A DNA stretch of 40,378 nucleotides from Deltaproteobacteria bacterium (GTDB lineage Bacteria > Myxococcota_A > UBA9160 > SMWR01): assembly GCA_032128375.1 (NCBI GenBank), contig JAQBGU010000126.1, forward strand, positions 1 to 40,378, given 5' to 3'. The translations under genes and the position numbers were made by a program. The notes under the pieces were generated by a model. The model was given only the letters and a program-made list of their open reading frames with translations, made no database searches and was not told where the DNA came from. Numbering within the stretch: position 1 is the first letter of the stretch; every line of letters begins with the position of its first letter. Below, in pieces: positions 22,634-40,378 of the stretch.

Positions 22634-23611
22634 ATGGCTGAATTCGAGATCCCCGACGACTTCCGCAACGACACGCGTGCGGCCTGGAAGCGCTACGTGG
22701 ACCTGCTCGCGCCTTTTCGGCCAGATCTGCATCGCTATTGCCTCGGCTTGACACGAAACCTGTGGGACGCCGAGGACCTCGTGCAGGAGACGGTGATTCG
22801 AGGCTTCGGAACGCTGAATTCGCTGCATGGTAGAATCGAGAACCCGCGCGGCTACCTGGTGCGGATCGCAACAAACCTGTGGATCGACCTGCTGCGTCGA
22901 CGATCTGCCGAAGCCGCAGCATTGAAGGCCGAACCGCCGGTTCCCGCGCAAGCGGCGGATACCAGTCAACGCGCCGAAACACGCGCCGCTGGCGCCCGCC
23001 TAATGGAGCGCCTTTCTCCGCAAGAACGAGCCGCCGTATTGATGAAGGACGTCTTCGACATGAGCCTCGACGACATTGCCAACGCACTGGGCACGACACT
23101 GGGCGCGGTCAAATCGGCATTGCATCGCGGACGCGCGCGCCTCGACGAGCCCGATGCGTCGCCGGAGTGGCGCCGACCGAGGCCTTCGATCGCACTGGTC
23201 GATCGCTTCGTCGAGCTGCTGAATGGCTCGGACCTGCCTGGCCTGCTCGACTTGATGCTGGATTCGAGCTGTGTCGAGGAATTCGGCTCACTGGTGGAAG
23301 TGGGCCGTGGACAGTTCGAGCGCGAGGGTAGTTTCCTGTGGCAATCCGTGAACGTTCACCCGGAACTTCCGGCCGATCAACGGCCCAAGAAGTGGCGCAA
23401 CGAGCGCGCCATATTCGAGGGCGAACCGCTGGTACTGAGCTTCGGTCCCGTACCAGATGGCGAACGACTGATGGGACTGACCCGCCTCGAAGAGAACGAC
23501 GGAAAGATCGCGCGCTTGCGCGCGTACATCTTCACACCAGAAACCATCCGCGCAATCGGCAAGTCCCTCGGATTGCCGGTGCTCACGGGTCTGTATCGGT
23601 TTCCGTTCTAG
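22634..23611 (+). CDS. ECF sigma-70 factor with C-terminal SnoaL-like extension
   Basis: LHRYC...DAEDLVQET (region 2); LSPQERAAVLMKDVFD...AVKSALHRGRARL (region 4); LVDRFVELLNGSDLPGLLDLM extension. Confidence 0.88.
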   Translation: MAEFEIPDDFRNDTRAAWKRYVDLLAPFRPDLHRYCLGLTRNLWDAEDLVQETVIRGFGTLNSLHGRIENPRGYLVRIATNLWIDLLRRRSAEAAALKAEPPVPAQAADTSQRAETRAAGARLMERLSPQERAAVLMKDVFDMSLDDIANALGTTLGAVKSALHRGRARLDEPDASPEWRRPRPSIALVDRFVELLNGSDLPGLLDLMLDSSCVEEFGSLVEVGRGQFEREGSFLWQSVNVHPELPADQRPKKWRNERAIFEGEPLVLSFGPVPDGERLMGLTRLEENDGKIARLRAYIFTPETIRAIGKSLGLPVLTGLYRFPF

Positions 23612-29131: not shown

Positions 29132-30100
29132 CTAGGAAGCCTGTCGGCCCGCTGCGCTCTCGCGCCGGATCTGCTCCCAACGAAACGGTGACTTGATCTG
29201 CGCCCACCAGGTCATCGGGAAGGCGGACAGGCCGGGGATTCCGATCTCTGCGGGCGGCTCGCGGTCTTTCGGCAGGAAGCGCGTTCCGAACAGCGTGTCC
29301 CAGACGATGATGGTCTGGCCGTAGTTGTGGTTGGATTCATCCATGGTCTTCGAATGATGCCATCGGTGCAGCTCTGCCATGCTGAAGAAGTGGTTGAGCA
29401 CCCCGAGCCGCAGTTGCAAGTTCGCGTGCTGGAAGATCCCATGCACGGCCGTCACCAACGTGAACAGCGCCAACACTTCGACGCTACACCCCAGCAGGAC
29501 GAGAAGGCCGTAGGATGGGATGAAGATGATCATGATATCGAGTGGGTGGAAGCGACCGGCGTTCAGCCAATACAGTCGCGGCGCGCTGTGGTGCGTGGCG
29601 TGAACGCGCCAAAGCGGTTCCCACTCGTGTTCGATGCGGTGAACCGTGTAGCCGGGCAGCTCGCCGATGACCAGCGCGAGCGCCAACTGGGCCAGTAGTG
29701 GCGCTTCGCTCGGCCAGAGTCCCATGCCGAATTCGCTCGACAACCAGCCACCGATCGCGACGCCGCCGGCCGCTACGAAGGGCGTCACGAGCCCAACCAG
29801 GATCCCGATGTTGATGCTGTGGGTTGCGTCCACGCGAACGTCGTCGTGCGGCCGGTTCCAGCTGCGATGGTATGGGTAGACGTGTTCGAGGATGGCCACG
29901 ACGGCGAACGCGCTTAGCTGCGGTATCAAAACCGCCTCGGGTGCTGGTACTCCGGTCGCCATCCAGTAGATGCACCACGCGACGCTGGCGCCCATCACGA
30001 CAGGGAAGACAGACCATTGAAAAGCGGCCGGAGCAACACGGCTGTCAGTCACCCGTTCAGTCACCCGTTCAATCACCCGTTCAATCACCCGTTCAGTCAA
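29132..30100 (-). CDS. Sterol desaturase/fatty acid hydroxylase family
   Basis: His boxes HRIEH, HATHH, HANL and HRWHH. The TTG at 30100 follows GGAGG; start uncertain. Confidence 0.9.
   Translation of the reverse strand: MTERVIERVIERVTERVTDSRVAPAAFQWSVFPVVMGASVAWCIYWMATGVPAPEAVLIPQLSAFAVVAILEHVYPYHRSWNRPHDDVRVDATHSINIGILVGLVTPFVAAGGVAIGGWLSSEFGMGLWPSEAPLLAQLALALVIGELPGYTVHRIEHEWEPLWRVHATHHSAPRLYWLNAGRFHPLDIMIIFIPSYGLLVLLGCSVEVLALFTLVTAVHGIFQHANLQLRLGVLNHFFSMAELHRWHHSKTMDESNHNYGQTIIVWDTLFGTRFLPKDREPPAEIGIPGLSAFPMTWWAQIKSPFRWEQIRRESAAGRQAS
30049..30096. repeat. Four 12-bp tandem units TCACCCGTTCAR
   Basis: TCACCCGTTCAG, TCACCCGTTCAA, TCACCCGTTCAA, TCACCCGTTCAG; reads TERVIERVIERVTERV in the desaturase frame. 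Confidence 0.92.
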
Positions 30101-30390
30101 CCATGCCTCCAGCGTGCGGCGGCAATCGCGATCAGACTTTCTCCAAGAACTCGAAGAACTGCAACGCATACACGGCATCGAACCCGGTAAGCGTACAATC
30201 TGTCAGACGAACAATCATCCCGGTCGAAGCACTGATTCGAATCGCGCGTGCGAGCGAGCCCACCGAGACGTGACCCAACCCGATACACCTCCACCTGATT
30301 CATCGATTGAAAGCCAAGCCGTGGCGCGCGACAATCATCCAGACGGGGGGCATCAGGTCGCTCGGGTTCCCGCGCGCTGGAGGATCGTTT

Positions 30391-33389: not shown

Positions 33390-34271
33390 TCATTCTGCAG
33401 GGGGCTGGCTTTCGATAGGACTCGGACGCTTCAGTCCCGGGATCGGTCGGCCCACTTCCAATGCCACCATGGTGAAAAACGAGTCGTCGATCGGAGGATT
33501 CATCGCGATGTCCTCGAATCGTGCCTCAGTCCGCGTCCCGCGCAGAGTATTTGTAACGACGATTCGAGAGGGAATGAGGTGCGCATCCAGCGAGATCAGG
33601 TCGGAACGGGGTGTCTCCAAGATCCGAAACGGTTCGGGCGAATCCGTTCGTTTGAAAAATTCCACCCTTAGCAACACGTCGTCGGTTGCGGCAATCAGAA
33701 AATCGACGTGGTCGTAGCCGGCCCCATCGACCGGTGACGCCTCAACGACGAACAGCGCCTCGTTGGCATCGACAACGTTGCGGGTCGATCGAATCTCATA
33801 GTCTTGTGCGCGCCGACGCTCGAAGTCCTCGAACCAAAGGTCCGAACCCATAAACGAGTCGGTGCGCTGGAAGCTCGACACTCGCCGAACGCGCTGCATC
33901 TCGGGAAGAAAAACGAAGTGATCGTCGGCTCGGTCGAGATGCTCCAGCATGAGAATCGTCGTGCCGCGCATCCACATCGGTTCGAGGAATCGTCCGTAGA
34001 CGTTTTGACGACCGCCGATTCGCTTCCGGGCGATCTCGACCCTTCGAATCAGCTCGTCTCCGCGCCGGTCGTAGATGTGAAGTGTGACGTTCATCAGAAG
34101 GTCGCAGTCGTACAGATTGTCGAAAGCACGGTCCAGAATCGTTTCGCCATGCATCGAACTCACCAGCCCGGACCCATCGTCGGCGGCCCCGAGCAGGGCA
34201 ATCGATAGGGCGACAATCAACAGGGCGTAACGGCTTTCCAACGGTTTCCCCCGATTCGCTCCGCTTCTCAC
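33390..34271 (-). CDS. LolA-like 'outer membrane lipoprotein-sorting' family protein
   Basis: Signal-like N-terminus; RFLEPMWMRGTTIL...DDHFVFLPEMQRVRRVS...SFMGSDLWFEDF...NPPIDDSFFT; GTGA overlap with the upstream stop. Confidence 0.85.
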   Translation of the reverse strand: MRSGANRGKPLESRYALLIVALSIALLGAADDGSGLVSSMHGETILDRAFDNLYDCDLLMNVTLHIYDRRGDELIRRVEIARKRIGGRQNVYGRFLEPMWMRGTTILMLEHLDRADDHFVFLPEMQRVRRVSSFQRTDSFMGSDLWFEDFERRRAQDYEIRSTRNVVDANEALFVVEASPVDGAGYDHVDFLIAATDDVLLRVEFFKRTDSPEPFRILETPRSDLISLDAHLIPSRIVVTNTLRGTRTEARFEDIAMNPPIDDSFFTMVALEVGRPIPGLKRPSPIESQPPAE

Positions 34272-37200
34272 TGCGTGAGCGGCACATGCAATACGAAACT
34301 GCTGCCCTCGCCAGGCGTCGATGTTACACAGATCTTCCAGCCCATACCCTCGGCGATCTCACGACTGATCGACAGCCCAATCCCCCGGCCTCCCGAACGG
34401 GACCGGGTCGTGTAGAACAGGTCGAATACTCGAGTGGTTTCGTCCAGAGTCATCCCGACTCCACTATCTCGAACCTCGAATGACAGCTCGCCACTCAACT
34501 CGGTCGCGTACACCCAGACGCTATCCTCTACGTCGCTCGCAGCGAGGGCATTCTCGACCAGGTTGGTGAGGATTCGAGCGAGCTTGTCCGAATGCTGCAT
34601 TCGAGGAAGTTCGGGCGCGGCACTGACGAGAACGCGGCCACCACCGGGATCGACTGCATCCACCACTCGGCCGATCACTTCGGTGACGGGGATCCCAATC
34701 CCAGGAGCGGGGTGGTGAGCCAGTTCGTCGACCATTCCGTACACGATTTCCAGTACGTGCTGCGACACAGCTTCGATCTTCGCGGCTTCTGCGCGCATCT
34801 GCTCGGGTTTCGAACTGGTGGCGATGATGCGTTCCGCGCGCCGCTCTATGACGCGCAGAGGGGTACCCAGATCGTGGGCGATACCGGTCACGAGCCGACC
34901 GAGAGCCGACCGTTCGGCAGCCGACGCTTGCTGTTCGGCCGCACGGGCGTTTCTGACAGCAGATGCGGTGTGTACGGCGGCCTTGCATGCAAACTCGATT
35001 TCTTCGCTCGAGAAGGCACGACCGGAATCCGGCGACCCAATCAGGATGATCCCCATGGGCTCGTCTCCGTCGTCGATCGAGATGAGAAGTTCGACTTCGG
35101 CGTTGCGGAGAGCAACGGCATCTGGTGAATCCGGCGCATCCCCTCGTGCGAGATGCAGGAACTTCCGATCGCCCAATAGCTCGATAGCGAATGATGCATA
35201 CTGGAGTCGAAACGCGGGACTCGCGAGCCCTGCGTAGGCGGGACAGCAATCGCCGTCACGAATGAGAAAGACCGCAACTCCAGTCGACTCGAGTCCCGCT
35301 TCGAGCGTTTGACCCACGAGCGTTGCGCTGACCACCTCTGATGAGAGATCGGCCTTCCTGACCTCCTGCACTCTCAATAGTTCCCGCCGTTTTCTCGCGC
35401 CGGGCGCGAGCGTATCGGTCACAACCGGTGAAAGTCTTCGATGGATCGACTCGGAGATCGCGAAACCCAAGGCTCCCGACAGTACCCAGAGCGAGACACC
35501 GCCAATCCCAACCATCGCATGGAAAGTCGTGATTGCTGTCGCAGTGATCGCTCCCGCAACACCGACACGTACAACCCCATCGAGAATCGACCTGGCGTTC
35601 GCGGCCAGGTCGAATAGCTCGTACCGCGTGGTCGCGTATCCGAACGGCACTGCGAACAGGCCAAGGCCTGAGAGAAGCGGAACCATTGAACCGCCAGCTA
35701 GAGACTCCCCCCAGCCGAAGTGGATCGCGCCAAAGATCAGCGGAACTCCCGCCGACCCGACGAGCAAGAGACGGGCTCGTGTACGCTCCAGTGCCGACCT
35801 CGTCTCATTTGCGGCCCTCACGGCATTGATCCACAACACGAGCGCGCCACACCACGTGAATGCGAGCTGAAATTGAACGACGAGGGTCCACAGGCTCGGC
35901 TCTCCTCTCAAGCCACGAACACCCGCGAATGCGAGAAGTACTGCGAATCCATAGGGGACCAAAACCACACCGGGCGCTTCGCGCGTAACGCTGCCTCGTC
36001 TCGGAAACGTCAAAGCCAGATGCCCCAACGTCGCTGGAATCAAAGGGGCCGTGGCAACACCAATCCATGCCAGAAAGGGGCTCTCGAAGTGGCATAGGAT
36101 GGCAATGAGCTGCACACCAGTGACGGAAAAGAGGAGTAACAGCGGCGTAGAGGCTCGTGCGGTTGCGCTCGAGTACACGCGAATTCCGAACGCCAATACG
36201 ACGGAGACGATGCACCCCGCCAGCAGGATTCCCAGCAGGCGCGAGCCGGGCGCCGCCGCAGAGGTAGGTACATCGATCGACCTCCGAACACCATCTCGCT
36301 CGACACTGAGTCGCACTCTGCCTTGGCTGCTCTCGATGGCTTGCGAGTACGGCCGATCACGCGAGAACGAAACAAGCCTTCCATCCGCCTCCACTCCCAG
36401 CACCTGATCGAGGGGTCGGAGCGGACAATCGTGGGATGACCCGACGATGAGCGGGATCACTCCGTTTGGCATGACTCGACAGGCCAGGCGTGTTTCGGGG
36501 TCATTTGGGGAGAGCCAAGGAGCTGCAGCCAGAACGAATGCAGTCAGGAGGGGAAGGACGAGGGCGACCAGCTGGACTCGTCGCCGCGACTCCGATGTAT
36601 GCTCCTCAACCCCCGGTGGCCCATCCGGAGCCTTGCCTTGCGACGATCCGGTCACGACGAAAATGATGGCGGGCAGCACCCAGAGATCCGCAACCAATGC
36701 GCCAAAGATCGCCACTCCTGCCAAGAACCCGAAACTCGCGATGCTCTGCCAGGAAGAGAACAGAAGCATGAAGAAGCCGAGAGTCAGGGCAACCGAGGTG
36801 GTGACGATTGCGCGACCGACGTGACGAACCGCGCCTTCGATTGCTTCCGCGCCTTCGGAGCCATCCCTTCTTCGTCGGTGAAATTCGGCGATCAGATGGA
36901 TGGCGTCGTCGACGGCGAGGCCCAACACGATTGCTGCAACCATCGCGGTTCCGACGTCGAGGTTGATGCCAGCGAAACCCATCACGCCCAGCGTCACCAC
37001 GACCGGAAGCAGTGTCGGGAACATCCCGACCAGGGCCCATCCGAACGACGCACCCACACTGAGACCAATCCAACGAATGAACAGGACAAGGATTCCGAGG
37101 ATCACCACAGCAGCGGTCGCGAAACTCGATAGCTGGGTTTGCTGGATCTCGGTCACCATGTCGCGATAAACGGCATAAGGGCCAGTAAGTGTGACCGCGA

Positions 37201-38938
37201 CAGACGAACGGAGACCGCTGGCCAGAATGCCATCCACTGCGCTCAGTATCCTGGCGCGCTCGCTCTTTGGCCGTTTTTCCGCCTCGACCGACACCCTCAG
37301 ACGGCTCAGTGTGGGGCTGATCCATTTTTCGAGGGCACCGGGGTCGCGTAGTGAGAGGAGCGTGAGGAGGTTGCTATTGAGACCGTCGGTATCGGGCAGC
37401 CGTTCGAATTCCGGCTTGTCGTCGTGCAACAAGCGATTGGTCCGTTTCAGCATGCTCACAACGCTGTGAACGGGACCCAGCCCGTCGATTGCGCTGAGCG
37501 ACATCTCGAGTTGCTCGACCTCGTGCAACAAGCCTGCGTCGTTCGCGAGTGTGCCGACCGGCAAGGCGAGTTCGATCTCGAGAGTATCAGGCTTCTGCAG
37601 GTGGGATTCGACGAAGCGGTATCCCTTGACTATCTCGCTCTGTTCTCCGAGTAGCTTGTATTCGTCAACATCGACATCCAAACGGAAGACACCCAACACA
37701 CAGACCAATCCCAGAGCAATCGCCCCAATCAAGATTGGCACCGCCCGTCGGCGGGTGGCGGCGACCAAGGACGCCAATCCCATTTCCCAGCGTTCCGAAC
37801 TCTGGGCGGCTCGTGGACGCTCGGCAGGCAACAGGATCATCAGGATGGGTAGGACGGTAAAACTCAGGAGCAGGGCTACGACCATTCCGAATGCCGCAAC
37901 CGTGCCGAACCGTACGAAGCTCTCGAGACTTGACGTAGTAAACGAGATGAATCCAACAGCCGTCGTCAGCGAAGTAACGAGACACGCCGGTCCCACTCTC
38001 CGGGCTGCGAGCAAGAAGGCTTCCGGTCGGACGGAGACCCCCCTGACTCGATGTTTTGCGTACTCGGCCAAGATGTGGACCGAGTCGCTGAGCGCAATGA
38101 CCAGAATCAGCGGGGGAAGTGTCTCGGTAAGAGCATTGGTCGGCCACCCAAGAGCCGCCTGAAAGCCCATGGTCGAGCCTGTCGATAGCCCGACGGTTGC
38201 GAGAGAGGCGGCCACCATTTGCCAGGATCGGAACAGCACGAACACAACGACGGCGATCAGCGCGATCATCAATGGAATGAGCCGCTGAGAGTCGGCTGCT
38301 AGTTCCGCATCGGTCTGCGCGAGCTGCGCGGGTTGACCAACGATGTAGAATTGGAATCCCAACGCGCGAAACGGCTCCAGTGCGCCTTCGAGCGCCGACA
38401 GTACGCCCGTCGCCGTATCACTGTGTGACGAAGACAATTCGAGGACGATCGCGCCCACAAGGCCGTCCGGGGAAACAAGAAGGCCCCGCCACAGGGGATC
38501 GGCGACAGCGCGGGCCGCCAGAGCCGCGATGTCGGACGCCGGTTGTTTACCATCGTAGAGCGTGCGTCCACCGAAGGAATCCCCTTCGGACACCCATAAT
38601 TGTGTCGTCGCGGGACTCTCGATCCGGATGATGTCGGAACGACTGCTGAGATCGCGCACCACCGAGTGCGCCATTGCTAGAGACGAGGAATCGAAGACCG
38701 TCTCACATGCAGCGCTCTGTTCACAGCTCCACGTGGCAATGATTGGCAGGCCACCACCGAAATCATCGATGAACTGATCCAAACGAATGACCGTGGGGTG
38801 CTCATTGCCGAGATACGCCCGATAACCCGTTTCGGCTCGCAGTGTCGGAATTCGCGAAGCAAGAAGAGCCACTCCCAACACGAGCACCAGCAGGACGACC
38901 ATGGGGTGAGCGAGTGCGATTCGGGTGAGTCGATCCAA
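34268..38938 (-). CDS. MMPL/RND exporter fused to a PDZ-like, multi-TM, GAF-like histidine kinase
   Basis: Single open frame. Two RND repeats with IALSDSVH and GLAVDDAIH; linker; LRPLDQVLGV...VRLSVERDG; TM bundle ending YATTRYELFD; GAF-like MGIILIG...FSSEEIEF; AHDLGTPL, NLVENA, DSGVGM, FYTT and GRGIGL. TTG start 8 nt after GGAG. Confidence 0.9.
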   Translation of the reverse strand: MDRLTRIALAHPMVVLLVLVLGVALLASRIPTLRAETGYRAYLGNEHPTVIRLDQFIDDFGGGLPIIATWSCEQSAACETVFDSSSLAMAHSVVRDLSSRSDIIRIESPATTQLWVSEGDSFGGRTLYDGKQPASDIAALAARAVADPLWRGLLVSPDGLVGAIVLELSSSHSDTATGVLSALEGALEPFRALGFQFYIVGQPAQLAQTDAELAADSQRLIPLMIALIAVVVFVLFRSWQMVAASLATVGLSTGSTMGFQAALGWPTNALTETLPPLILVIALSDSVHILAEYAKHRVRGVSVRPEAFLLAARRVGPACLVTSLTTAVGFISFTTSSLESFVRFGTVAAFGMVVALLLSFTVLPILMILLPAERPRAAQSSERWEMGLASLVAATRRRAVPILIGAIALGLVCVLGVFRLDVDVDEYKLLGEQSEIVKGYRFVESHLQKPDTLEIELALPVGTLANDAGLLHEVEQLEMSLSAIDGLGPVHSVVSMLKRTNRLLHDDKPEFERLPDTDGLNSNLLTLLSLRDPGALEKWISPTLSRLRVSVEAEKRPKSERARILSAVDGILASGLRSSVAVTLTGPYAVYRDMVTEIQQTQLSSFATAAVVILGILVLFIRWIGLSVGASFGWALVGMFPTLLPVVVTLGVMGFAGINLDVGTAMVAAIVLGLAVDDAIHLIAEFHRRRRDGSEGAEAIEGAVRHVGRAIVTTSVALTLGFFMLLFSSWQSIASFGFLAGVAIFGALVADLWVLPAIIFVVTGSSQGKAPDGPPGVEEHTSESRRRVQLVALVLPLLTAFVLAAAPWLSPNDPETRLACRVMPNGVIPLIVGSSHDCPLRPLDQVLGVEADGRLVSFSRDRPYSQAIESSQGRVRLSVERDGVRRSIDVPTSAAAPGSRLLGILLAGCIVSVVLAFGIRVYSSATARASTPLLLLFSVTGVQLIAILCHFESPFLAWIGVATAPLIPATLGHLALTFPRRGSVTREAPGVVLVPYGFAVLLAFAGVRGLRGEPSLWTLVVQFQLAFTWCGALVLWINAVRAANETRSALERTRARLLLVGSAGVPLIFGAIHFGWGESLAGGSMVPLLSGLGLFAVPFGYATTRYELFDLAANARSILDGVVRVGVAGAITATAITTFHAMVGIGGVSLWVLSGALGFAISESIHRRLSPVVTDTLAPGARKRRELLRVQEVRKADLSSEVVSATLVGQTLEAGLESTGVAVFLIRDGDCCPAYAGLASPAFRLQYASFAIELLGDRKFLHLARGDAPDSPDAVALRNAEVELLISIDDGDEPMGIILIGSPDSGRAFSSEEIEFACKAAVHTASAVRNARAAEQQASAAERSALGRLVTGIAHDLGTPLRVIERRAERIIATSSKPEQMRAEAAKIEAVSQHVLEIVYGMVDELAHHPAPGIGIPVTEVIGRVVDAVDPGGGRVLVSAAPELPRMQHSDKLARILTNLVENALAASDVEDSVWVYATELSGELSFEVRDSGVGMTLDETTRVFDLFYTTRSRSGGRGIGLSISREIAEGMGWKICVTSTPGEGSSFVLHVPLTQ

Positions 38939-38943
38939 CCGGT

Positions 38944-40209
38944 CTACTCCGACCGCTCGCCTTCGCGCCGAACGGGAACGAGCTTGTGACGACGAAAGCG
39001 ATACTTCGCTGCGTTTCGAGTAATTCCCAGATGATCTGCAACGCCGGTGTATGTTCCGTGCTTCTCCCAAAGTTCCAAGAGCTGTTCGCGTTCACCTTTC
39101 TCTCTGCGGCGCGAAATGCGCTCGAGTGGTGTCTCGATTTTAGATAGAACCGATTCCGCGCAGTCGGCGGTGATTTCACCACTGGGTGTGTATACGAGCA
39201 TCGCTTCCACGACTCGCTCCATCTCATCGAGATTCTGCTCCCAAGAGTGATTCCTGAGTTTCTCGAGAGCGGGTTCTCCGATAGAGACATCGCGCCGACC
39301 GAGCTTCGAGCCGTACCGCTCGATCATGGACTCGATGATTGCGGGAATGTCCTCTTCACGTTCCGATATGGGTGGCAGGCTGACTTCGAACTGGGCCAGG
39401 GTTTCAAAGAGTGCGGAATCGAAGTCGCCACTCTCGACCAATTGCTGCAAATCGCGTTCGGTGGACGCTACGACTCGGTAACCAGCATCGCCGAGCTGGA
39501 TCGATCTCGAGAGCCGATCACGCCAGCGGGATTGAAGAGTCCCGGATAACTGATCGACATCGGCGAGGAACACCAGGCCCGTTTCGGGGTCTCGATCGGC
39601 GCCCGGCCGCAATCGACAATCGTTCACGTGGAAGTCGGAATCGCCCTGATGGCCAAAGCGATGAAGATATCGTGCCACCTGTTCGTGGCCGGTGCCGACC
39701 GCGCCGCGAATCAGCACCGGGCTCCTGATTTCCGCAAGAGAATTCAGCTGACGAAGTAGGGTCAATGTCGCCGAACTGTGTCCCGCGAGAGCCTCTGGAA
39801 TTCGGTCCACAAGTCCTGACAAAAGTTCCTTCGCCCTGGAGACGAGCCCCGCTACGCCTTCGTCATTGAACGGAAAGAAGTCCGTGGCTCCACTCTTGCC
39901 GGCTGCAACGGCAATCGAGAGCGACCCATACGCCGAAAGAAGAAGAACAGGGCATGCCGCATTGACCGAACCCGAAGACCTGATCCGCTTCAGGAGCGCA
40001 AGACCATCGACCCGCGGCATTCGAAGATCGGTGATCACCAGATCGATCGGCTGACGCTGAAACTGCATCCATCCCGACTCACCATCAACAGCGGTCACGG
40101 TCCGAATCCCGGCGTCTTCGAGTTCCGCGCAAACCAGATCGCGAGAAAACTCACGATCATCGACCAATAGAACTGTGCTCTGGGCGGCGCGCTCGGGCCT
40201 GGAGTACAT
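38944..40209 (-). CDS. NtrC-like response regulator (REC, degenerate AAA+, Fis-type HTH)
   Basis: VLLVDD, ITDLRMPRVDG and LLSAYG; PVLIRGAVGTGHE; RVVASTERDL; VADHLGITRNAAKYRF. Confidence 0.88.
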   Translation of the reverse strand: MYSRPERAAQSTVLLVDDREFSRDLVCAELEDAGIRTVTAVDGESGWMQFQRQPIDLVITDLRMPRVDGLALLKRIRSSGSVNAACPVLLLSAYGSLSIAVAAGKSGATDFFPFNDEGVAGLVSRAKELLSGLVDRIPEALAGHSSATLTLLRQLNSLAEIRSPVLIRGAVGTGHEQVARYLHRFGHQGDSDFHVNDCRLRPGADRDPETGLVFLADVDQLSGTLQSRWRDRLSRSIQLGDAGYRVVASTERDLQQLVESGDFDSALFETLAQFEVSLPPISEREEDIPAIIESMIERYGSKLGRRDVSIGEPALEKLRNHSWEQNLDEMERVVEAMLVYTPSGEITADCAESVLSKIETPLERISRRREKGEREQLLELWEKHGTYTGVADHLGITRNAAKYRFRRHKLVPVRREGERSE

Positions 40210-40228
40210 GAGTGTCCCGTAGTTGCGT

Positions 40229-40268
40229 CTCCTGAGAAAACGCGTCCTCGGGCGCGATTTCTCAGGAG
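40229..40268. promoter_or_regulatory. Long inverted repeat upstream of the regulator-transporter-kinase operon
   Basis: CTCCTGAGAAA (40229-40239) / TTTCTCAGGAG (40258-40268), with inner CGCG/CGCG also pairing; 19 bp upstream of the ATG at 40209. Confidence 0.6.
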
Positions 40269-40378
40269 CAATGTCTCCGCCCGAAGGGCGGTGCAACGCT
40301 AACAACGATACCCTTTGGCCACAGAACAAGTACACGAAAATCGAAGCGCAGCGGTTCGAAACGCCAAGCATTGGAGCG

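Follow-up and report, generated by a model that had tools for sequence, protein, structure and literature searches.

The window analysed here, a stretch of 40,378 nucleotides (nt), was taken from a metagenome-assembled draft genome (6.2 Mb, 249 contigs, 91% complete) of a marine-sediment myxobacterium. On its minus strand lies a single gene in which an RND/MMPL-type exporter is joined to a sensor histidine kinase. This gene is the middle one of three head-to-tail genes on the same strand with almost no spacing between them, in the order response regulator, pump-kinase fusion and LolA-like protein. The pairing of an RND pump with this sensor kinase is not confined to the window, as it recurs in relatives, where the two parts are either fused or encoded as overlapping neighbours. 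Table 1 summarizes the corresponding features.

Table 1. Features of the fused gene and its neighbours in the window, and arrangements found at the 18 related loci (TM, transmembrane segment; DHp, dimerization and histidine phosphotransfer).
Feature	Position or loci	Strand	Description or evidence
Fused pump-kinase gene	34268..38938	(-)	1556 residues, 22 predicted TMs (RND exporter followed by a PDZ/9-TM sensor and a histidine kinase)
RND half, residues 1-763	36650..38938	(-)	12 TMs, two periplasmic loops; Pfam, HAE3 model and hydropathy
TM4 motif IALSDSVH, residues 281-288	38075..38098	(-)	Sequence and family alignment
TM10 motif GLAVDDAIH, residues 673-681	36896..36922	(-)	Candidate proton-relay site
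Cytoplasmic linker, residues 764-787	36578..36649	(-)	Gly/Pro/Ser/Glu/Arg-rich; poorly conserved in family alignment
TM13, residues 788-806	36521..36577	(-)	Hydropathy peak H=2.40; model helix 16-41
Periplasmic PDZ-fold domain, residues 809-897	36248..36514	(-)	Predicted structure
Nine-TM bundle, about residues 898-1177	35408..36247	(-)	Hydropathy and AlphaFold2 model
GAF-like cytoplasmic region, about residues 1200-1335	34934..35341	(-)	Weak profile match
DHp region	34724..34921	(-)	Phospho-acceptor His1355 (codon 34874-34876); family alignment
Catalytic ATP-binding domain, residues 1450-1555	34274..34591	(-)	N, G1, F and G2 boxes; HATPase_c
Response regulator (receiver, degenerate AAA+, Fis-type helix-turn-helix)	38944..40371	(-)	Pfam and translation
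LolA-like periplasmic protein gene	33390..34271	(-)	LolA_like PF17131, 1.7e-32
One fused frame with kinase	L113-L117, L119, L120		7/18 loci (frame of L119 ends early)
Pump fused to TM module, without kinase	L118		1/18 loci
Pump gene, then separate sensor-kinase gene	L104-L107, L110, L112		6/18 loci
Regulator, sensor kinase and LolA-like gene, no adjacent pump	L103, L108, L109		3/18 loci
Rearranged	L111		1/18 loci

The minus strand contains no stop codon from position 39070 to 34268, a run of 1600 codons. Within this run, the TTG at 38938 is the likely start of the fused gene. It is preceded by GGAG at a distance of 8-9 nt, it stands 5 nt past the TAG of the regulator gene, and starting there includes the N-terminal "xxLTRxAL" motif common to the family, in which L4 and T5 are nearly invariant. 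In another gene call (P0002), an ATG 12 codons further in was used, giving 1544 residues. With the TTG start, the protein has 1556 residues, in agreement with the stop-free open reading frame (ORF) of about that length described in the original prediction, which had been made from the sequence alone. The same prediction had described a Gly/Pro linker with no obvious internal start between the two halves. On inspection of the DNA, this linker (GSSQGKAPDGPPGVEEHTSESRRR) was found to hold no in-frame ATG, GTG or TTG past V762, and its length is kept at about 20-25 residues in the family alignment.

The reality of the joint was evaluated using Logan contigs from three sequencing runs. Each contig set covered positions 35900-37400 in one piece with 0 indels, and neither a stop nor a frameshift at the linker was seen, although all three runs belong to one marine-sediment study and one of them may be the source of this DNA. 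The sole difference was a C>T at 36602 in two of the three, which falls on the third position of the E779 codon and is synonymous. Because these contigs cross the joint without an indel, and because 20 fused homologues and a paralogous fusion in the same genome were also found, the fused protein is a genuine single gene encoding one polypeptide and not an assembly artefact.

In the case of the N-terminal half, residues 1-763 belong to the MMPL/RND superfamily. The Pfam MMPL profile (PF03176) matched in two stretches at 4.2e-36, with 125 bits against a cut-off of 20.5, and hydropathy with a 19-residue window gave 12 TMs arranged as in RND proteins, TM1 and TM7 each being followed by a long loop (about residues 26-219 and 419-600, respectively). 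The two-repeat transporter that had been expected was thus confirmed by both the profile and the layout. The Sterol-sensing and Patched sterol-sensing domain (SSD) profiles of Pfam also matched this half, and the best-scoring NCBIfam model was HAE3 (TIGR00921; 1.5e-53, residues 155-760). The closest solved chains were HpnN (5khn, E 3.6e-9) and MmpL5. Pump halves of the related cassettes were 34-54% identical to that of the window, and generic HAE3-type pumps of many phyla were 22-31% identical. The one exception among the latter was locus L011 (41%), labelled Spirochaetales; it was considered as a further fusion and rejected, its kinase-like and pump matches lying 4 kb apart.

In TM10, all 21 fused proteins keep D677, D678 and H681, and the motif that carries these residues aligns to the GVDF motif of HpnN. 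H288 in TM4 was likewise invariant in all 21, and the family alignment showed an invariant C72/C78 pair in the first periplasmic loop. Since D677, D678, H681 and H288 are kept throughout, the pump half looks active from its sequence. The earlier statement that acidic residues are retained in both the TM4 and the TM10 motifs was correct for TM10, where the acidic pair is invariant; both motifs are present in the window protein, but the Asp of TM4 is not a family feature, as discussed below.

Hydropathy over the whole protein gave 12 + 1 + 9 TMs, the last reaching to about residue 1161, with a hydrophilic stretch of about 90 residues separating TM13 from the nine hydrophobic segments that follow. 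Because both ends of an RND unit are cytoplasmic, TM13 is predicted to run from the cytoplasm to the periplasm, and the nine further TMs to return the chain, which places the GAF-like region and the kinase in the cytoplasm. Clusters of Arg ahead of TM13 and past TM22 fit this topology. An AlphaFold2 model of residues 764-1230, obtained with 19 aligned sequences (predicted local distance difference test (pLDDT) 77, predicted template modelling score (pTM) 0.73), began with a single helix, continued with a small, beta-rich domain that includes one helix, and ended in nine long helices. The TM, the PDZ-like extracytoplasmic domain and the roughly nine further TMs of the original prediction were therefore reproduced by hydropathy and models alike.

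The small domain, residues 809-897, reached a pLDDT of 88 when modelled alone. On comparing this model with 48,161 chains using VIA-align, nearly all of the 50 matches listed were PDZ domains or PDZ-containing proteins, the best being DegS (3gcn; Z 8.0, root-mean-square deviation 2.9, 83 of 89 residues aligned). The top rows of a Foldseek search were the PDZ domains of DegP, DegS, CtpA, HtrA2 and RseP at E 0.009-0.07, with none at E<=0.001. The domain was invisible to sequence profiles: no Pfam PDZ match was obtained, and PDZ domains appeared only at E>=0.19 in a profile search of PDB sequences, the best match of which, a designed TIM barrel at E 0.004, was discarded as not significant. Because most of the model can be overlaid on solved PDZ domains, the predicted structure of residues 809-897 is a PDZ fold. 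A C820/C838 pair within it was invariant in two alignments (19/19 and 21/21).

The nine-TM bundle that follows is marked by the conserved motifs HLALTFPR, RESxSxLERARAR and RYxLFD. Its first seven helices (model residues about 135-355) superposed on the seven-TM (7TM) domains of G-protein-coupled receptors (GPCRs) with Z 10-13.6, which is borderline, being about what helical bundles reach by common arrangement according to the tool's note. The term "7TM receptor-like" may thus serve as a description of the model, and no homology is claimed. No Pfam family matched the nine-TM sensor module at E<=10, and Foldseek returned no solved structure at E<=0.001. In an Atlas feature search, the module was nearest to unnamed clusters of Myxococcota, Acidobacteriota and Chloroflexota, in which PDZ_6 or PDZ_2 was recorded on 10-33% of members, HisKA_7TM on 12% of one cluster and GAF on a minority. 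By these searches, the TM sensor module could be assigned to no described family.

Between the bundle and the kinase, a GAF-like domain had been proposed. In the window protein, GAF_3 matched weakly and under threshold (E=0.033, 15 bits against a cut-off of 27), so this assignment is weak by its own profile. The PrsK model (TIGR02916), the best of the NCBIfam models for this end of the protein, matched the C-terminus at E 1.8e-24 over its positions 409-679, which is its GAF and kinase part only. The score of 86.3 bits is far under the PrsK cut-off of 300, and the protein is not a full-length PrsK. Of the 20 full-length fused homologues, 3 have a GAF annotation, and a paralogue matches GAF at 1.2e-6. 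In the kinase itself, H1355 was invariant in 21/21 proteins, with HisKA at E=0.0032, under threshold. HATPase_c matched residues 1450-1555 at 5.5e-23 (82 bits against a cut-off of 26.4), and N1463, D1491, G1493, G1495, G1519 and G1521 were invariant in 21/21, F1509 being nearly so. The H, N, G1, F and G2 boxes are thus in place as predicted, and judged by them the histidine kinase is intact.

The gene upstream encodes a response regulator with Pfam matches to Response_reg (3.1e-19), Sigma54_activ_2 (2.5e-19) and AAA_lid_14. Its receiver domain is intact, with D115 (ORF numbering) as the acceptor. The 24-residue segment with the GAFTGA motif is missing from the window regulator and from 11 of 11 NtrC-type orthologues in related cassettes (L103-L111, L113 and L118), and the Walker A Lys is replaced by His in the window and by Arg or His in all 11; a canonical activator aligned beside them keeps both. 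Therefore, the regulator is unlikely to act via sigma-54, and the cassette regulators are probably a lineage of receiver/AAA-like/helix-turn-helix proteins that do not use it.

The GTG start of the LolA-like gene overlaps the stop of the fusion by 4 nt. The N-terminus of its product contains a hydrophobic stretch without Cys, a possible signal sequence as read from the translation with no predictor. When 18 related loci were fetched and the five parts mapped by tblastn, the LolA-like gene was found in 14 and an upstream receiver-domain gene in 16, full-length in 11. A separate scan of a genome collection, for which the patterns came from the pump half, yielded 80 mostly generic HAE3-type pumps from many phyla. 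Among these unfused pumps, 26 of 80 had a LolA-like gene within 6 kb and 0 of 80 had the sensor module. Thus, the LolA-like protein belongs primarily with pumps of this kind. The excerpt of PMC6394551 describes a comparable case, the AmeABCD system, in which AmeB, a protein of the LolA superfamily, acts together with the HAE3 pump AmeD. From these neighbourhoods, the LolA-like carrier of the window appears to fit the pump half.

A word-indexed search of 5.8 billion protein clusters returned 20 full-length fused homologues of 1525-1575 residues with 32-51% identity and the same domain order, together with one 981-residue fragment. By BLASTP, 19 of the 20 aligned over 100% of the query. They carry automatic names only, such as "MMPL family transporter [Myxococcota bacterium]". 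The same architecture thus exists in other genomes, and homologues do not all occur as two separate genes. The sensor module taken alone was detected in 146 proteins at E<=0.001 (HMMER, 1.84 billion representative proteins at 50% identity); in 21 of these, it starts at residue 700 or later, which marks them as fused, and 20 of the 21 have at least 1300 residues. Of 401 genomes of the phylum searched, 32 contained the module, all in the order of the window or in one family of the same class.

At each of the six split loci, the pump gene ends a few residues past TM12 and the sensor gene begins in another frame, either with an overlap (ATGA in L107, 4 nt in L104) or within about 100 nt. The kinase-less variant at L118:5852-9580 (+) (G153:C24) is a 1242-residue ORF that stops before the GAF and kinase parts, with a LolA-like gene following and a regulator upstream; it may represent decay, or the TM module may serve the pump itself. 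At L103, L108 and L109, the LolA-like gene accompanies the kinase even where no pump is adjacent.

The history of the joint was followed on a tree. A profile search of 265 collected proteins found the module in 163, comprising 39 fused, 77 stand-alone, 34 fragmentary and 13 N-terminally extended proteins. A FastTree tree was then built from 122 near-complete modules (45 fused and 77 not), with fragments and N-terminally extended rows left out. On this tree, which is a quick one with several long branches, the fused/unfused label needs 12 changes, of which at least 8 are forced by starred branches. Shuffled labels needed 36.5 changes on average, and 0 of 500 shuffles came as low as the observed 12. 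The window falls in a starred clade of 14 rows, 12 of which are fused. Some stand-alone rows within fused clades, P0123 and P0191 among them, probably represent truncated gene calls; in these two, the module begins at residue 1-2. The architecture is thus conserved over the family, and fusion and fission have recurred.

Other combinations of these parts were also encountered. The genome of the window holds a paralogous pump-kinase fusion, cut by a contig end, at G000:C199:40609-43419 (L009:7583-10420, minus strand), which is 28% identical over the sensor half; downstream of it lie a LolA-like gene of its own and a canonical GAFTGA sigma-54 activator that lacks a receiver domain. A further protein of this genome (G000:C143; L010:5521-8463, minus strand) has 980 residues and adjoins lnt, the gene for apolipoprotein N-acyltransferase. 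It combines the same TM module and GAF with a class III nucleotide cyclase as output, and the sensor module therefore appears as a portable input domain. Related HAE3-type pumps with a C-terminal cyclic-nucleotide-binding domain (PF00027, about 2e-20) lie at L074:5269-8772 (+), in a Rokubacteriota metagenome-assembled genome (MAG), and at L086:5344-8091 (+), in a Myxococcota MAG; a LolA-like gene stands just upstream of the former. Kinase-like tblastn matches beside these two pumps were examined as candidates and rejected, as neither a fusion nor a downstream kinase was present and the cyclic-nucleotide-binding domain was found instead. Additions of PF00027, alpha/beta-hydrolase or sulfatase domains occurred on other pumps among the protein-cluster matches, and C-terminal add-ons to such pumps seem common from these sequences.

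Around the cassette itself, 7 nt separate the regulator ORF from the contig end upstream of it, and the downstream genes of the window look unrelated. Elsewhere in the window lie a fatty-acid hydroxylase family gene at 29132-30178 (-) and, at 22634-23611 (+), a gene for an extracytoplasmic function (ECF)-type sigma factor of 325 residues with a long C-terminal extension; no link of either to the cassette was seen. At L107:12443-14200, the split cassette is followed at a distance of about 1 kb by phospholipid-transport genes, those for MlaC and MlaA, the MlaC ORF beginning 1071 nt past the LolA-like match; these genes were not seen among the scanned flanks of 7 other loci.

Transporters fused to histidine kinases have been described before. 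The excerpts of PMC13022988 and PMC5764959 describe CbrA/CrbS, a histidine kinase with an SLC5-type carrier joined to it, and the Amt-kinase of Kuenenia; the CbrA preprint terms the combination of transporter and kinase in one chain rare. As in these cases, a complete membrane transporter precedes a histidine kinase in the window protein, which thereby has the architecture of a transporter-kinase transceptor in one polypeptide. Unlike the solute importers of those systems, the pump of the window is of the RND/MMPL type, a class of exporters for hydrophobic cargo, with large periplasmic domains. It also differs in having a second, self-sufficient sensor (PDZ, nine TMs and GAF-like region) between pump and kinase, and in that the pair occurs as two overlapping genes as well.

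With HpnN, a hopanoid shuttle, and AmeABCD, the window protein shares the 12-TM RND core, and with AmeB/AmeD the pairing of a pump with a periplasmic LolA-superfamily protein, as far as the excerpt of PMC6394551 goes. However, the pumps of those systems carry neither a kinase nor a sensor module, the window cassette showed no outer-membrane DUF1302 or YCF48-like partners, and the conserved acidic pair of the window family lies in TM10 and not at the TM4 position of HpnN. Sensor kinases with a multi-TM sensor followed by GAF and kinase are known from PrsK of the PEP-CTERM system, the 7TM kinases LytS/BtsS and the HisKA_7TM/PDZ sensors; none of these families carries an RND pump, and the TM part of the PrsK model had no match in the window protein. 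In BceAB-BceS flux sensing, one of several co-sensing transporter/kinase pairs, the kinase reports on the activity of a dedicated ATP-binding cassette (ABC) transporter encoded next to it, the two being separate proteins and the kinase a minimal intramembrane one. In contrast, the pair studied here is covalently fused in many lineages, and its kinase has large sensor domains of its own. The combination of an SSD-signature RND unit with a 7TM-like bundle (Z up to 13.6) also resembles Patched/Smoothened and GPR155/LYCHOS, the latter a transporter with a GPCR-like domain. This likeness is one of logic and fold only: no relation showed in the sequences, and here the signal leaves through a two-component kinase. 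The original prediction had named no characterised MMPL-kinase fusion, and a full-text literature search, with subscription journals and supplements outside its coverage, likewise found no paper on an RND/MMPL pump fused to a kinase.

As described above, pump and sensor occur as fused or overlapping genes within one cassette, and such a pattern of fusion and fission is a classic sign of parts that act together. On this ground, we lean, though not strongly, to the reading that the two work together and that the export step is sensed in a coupled manner. The pump half would use the proton-motive force via the TM10 Asp-Asp-x-x-His residues to lift a cargo, presumably hydrophobic or lipid, from the inner membrane, and would hand it to the LolA-like carrier. 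Held within a 24-residue tether of TM12, the sensor module may contact the pump and read the state of the export step through the membrane bundle, the PDZ domain or both. The state that is read might be cargo load, transport cycling or acceptor availability. The sensor would then set autophosphorylation at the predicted acceptor His1355, and the phosphoryl group is predicted, from gene adjacency, to pass to the regulator encoded just upstream. Because the sigma-54 contact loop is lost, this protein is probably an ordinary DNA-binding regulator, and it may adjust the export pathway.

Several observations weigh against coupled sensing. In the case of the pump, the HAE3 score of 181.9 bits is under the curated cut-off of 351.9, and D285 of TM4 is kept in only 9 of 21 fused proteins, with Glu in 1. 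No conserved neighbour, biosynthetic or other, was found beyond the cassette among 38 flanking ORFs at 8 loci, a subset of 58 ORFs picked outside the cassettes. In the case of the sensor, the module stands alone more often than it is fused (77 against 39 collected proteins), the sensor kinase occurs with a LolA-like gene and no adjacent pump in 3 of 18 loci, and in the same genome the module drives a nucleotide cyclase instead of a kinase. The sensor module is thus a self-sufficient unit, for which the pump is dispensable in some lineages. A complete sensor module already belongs to the kinase and also occurs without the pump, so the pump is not the sole input domain and may not be the main one. 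Moreover, truncated gene calls may inflate the count of changes on the tree, and, as one frameshift fuses adjacent overlapping genes, the fusion could be nearly neutral. The original prediction of a transceptor that couples lipid or hydrophobic-signal export to a phosphorelay therefore stands in part: the alternation of fused and overlapping forms in a conserved cassette agrees with it, but the pump is not the sole input and the module is also found without it.

The strongest alternative is that the fusion is incidental. The kinase would then sense its own periplasmic or membrane signal by the PDZ domain and the nine TMs and merely control pump expression, with no signalling between the halves, and the joining of the genes would be a near-neutral frameshift. 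The PDZ domains of DegS and RseP sense exposed C-terminal peptides during envelope stress, and the signal might be of this kind, as the PDZ fold of the module is closest to those of stress-sensing proteases. This explanation is also consistent with a module that is complete alone and mostly unfused, with the loci that pair the kinase with a LolA-like gene only, and with split genes whose overlap a single frameshift can remove. However, the fused state is kept over whole clades, down to 32% identity, and arose or reverted at least 8 times; the linker is held to a narrow range of lengths; and the kinase-less variant at L118 keeps the joint between pump and TM module, which suggests a role of the TM module at the pump. 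An incidental fusion is thus considered unlikely, although it deserves serious weight.

A more specific possibility is a one-chain logic of the Patched-Smoothened kind. The RND pump, with its sterol-sensing-type domain, would control the local supply of a lipid that is itself the ligand of the tethered 7TM-like bundle, and the state of the bundle would be written into the two-component phosphorelay, while the PDZ domain, together with the LolA-like carrier, would signal that exported cargo is or is not accepted. The two observations behind this analogy are the SSD signature and the borderline 7TM fold match, and we regard it as quite doubtful. Still less probable is a non-transporting RND half that only binds lipid and in this way informs the kinase about membrane lipids, a role like that of the sterol-sensing domain in SCAP. 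The Sterol-sensing and Patched SSD matches, the unconserved TM4 Asp and the HAE3 score under its cut-off would suit such a domain, but the TM10 Asp-Asp-x-x-His and the TM4 His are invariant, both periplasmic loops are retained, and a LolA-like gene overlaps the 3' end as one stands beside 26 of 80 unfused pumps. Finally, that two genes were merged by a chimeric contig or a sequencing frameshift is hardly credible: the source is indeed a draft in 249 contigs and split forms do exist in relatives, but the contigs of the three runs (from one study, one run possibly being the source) agree over the joint, the 20 full-length fused homologues are independent, and 12 of the 14 rows in the window's own clade are fused.

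Coupled sensing by pump and sensor thus remains the reading that we favour. The reach of the finding is limited, as the protein family is small and was found among uncultured Myxococcota of one order and one further family. Few natural systems allow "sensing by transporting" to be studied in one molecule; transporter-kinase fusions belong to them, and the known cases involve solute importers. Feedback control of envelope-lipid export in diderm bacteria is poorly understood, and a kinase fused to an RND lipid-type exporter would bring sensing by transport to this process. The family also defines an undescribed sensor module, consisting of a TM, a PDZ domain and nine further TMs, that is able to drive kinases or cyclases. 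Moreover, the natural alternation of fused and split forms provides ready-made controls for whether the pump talks to the kinase.

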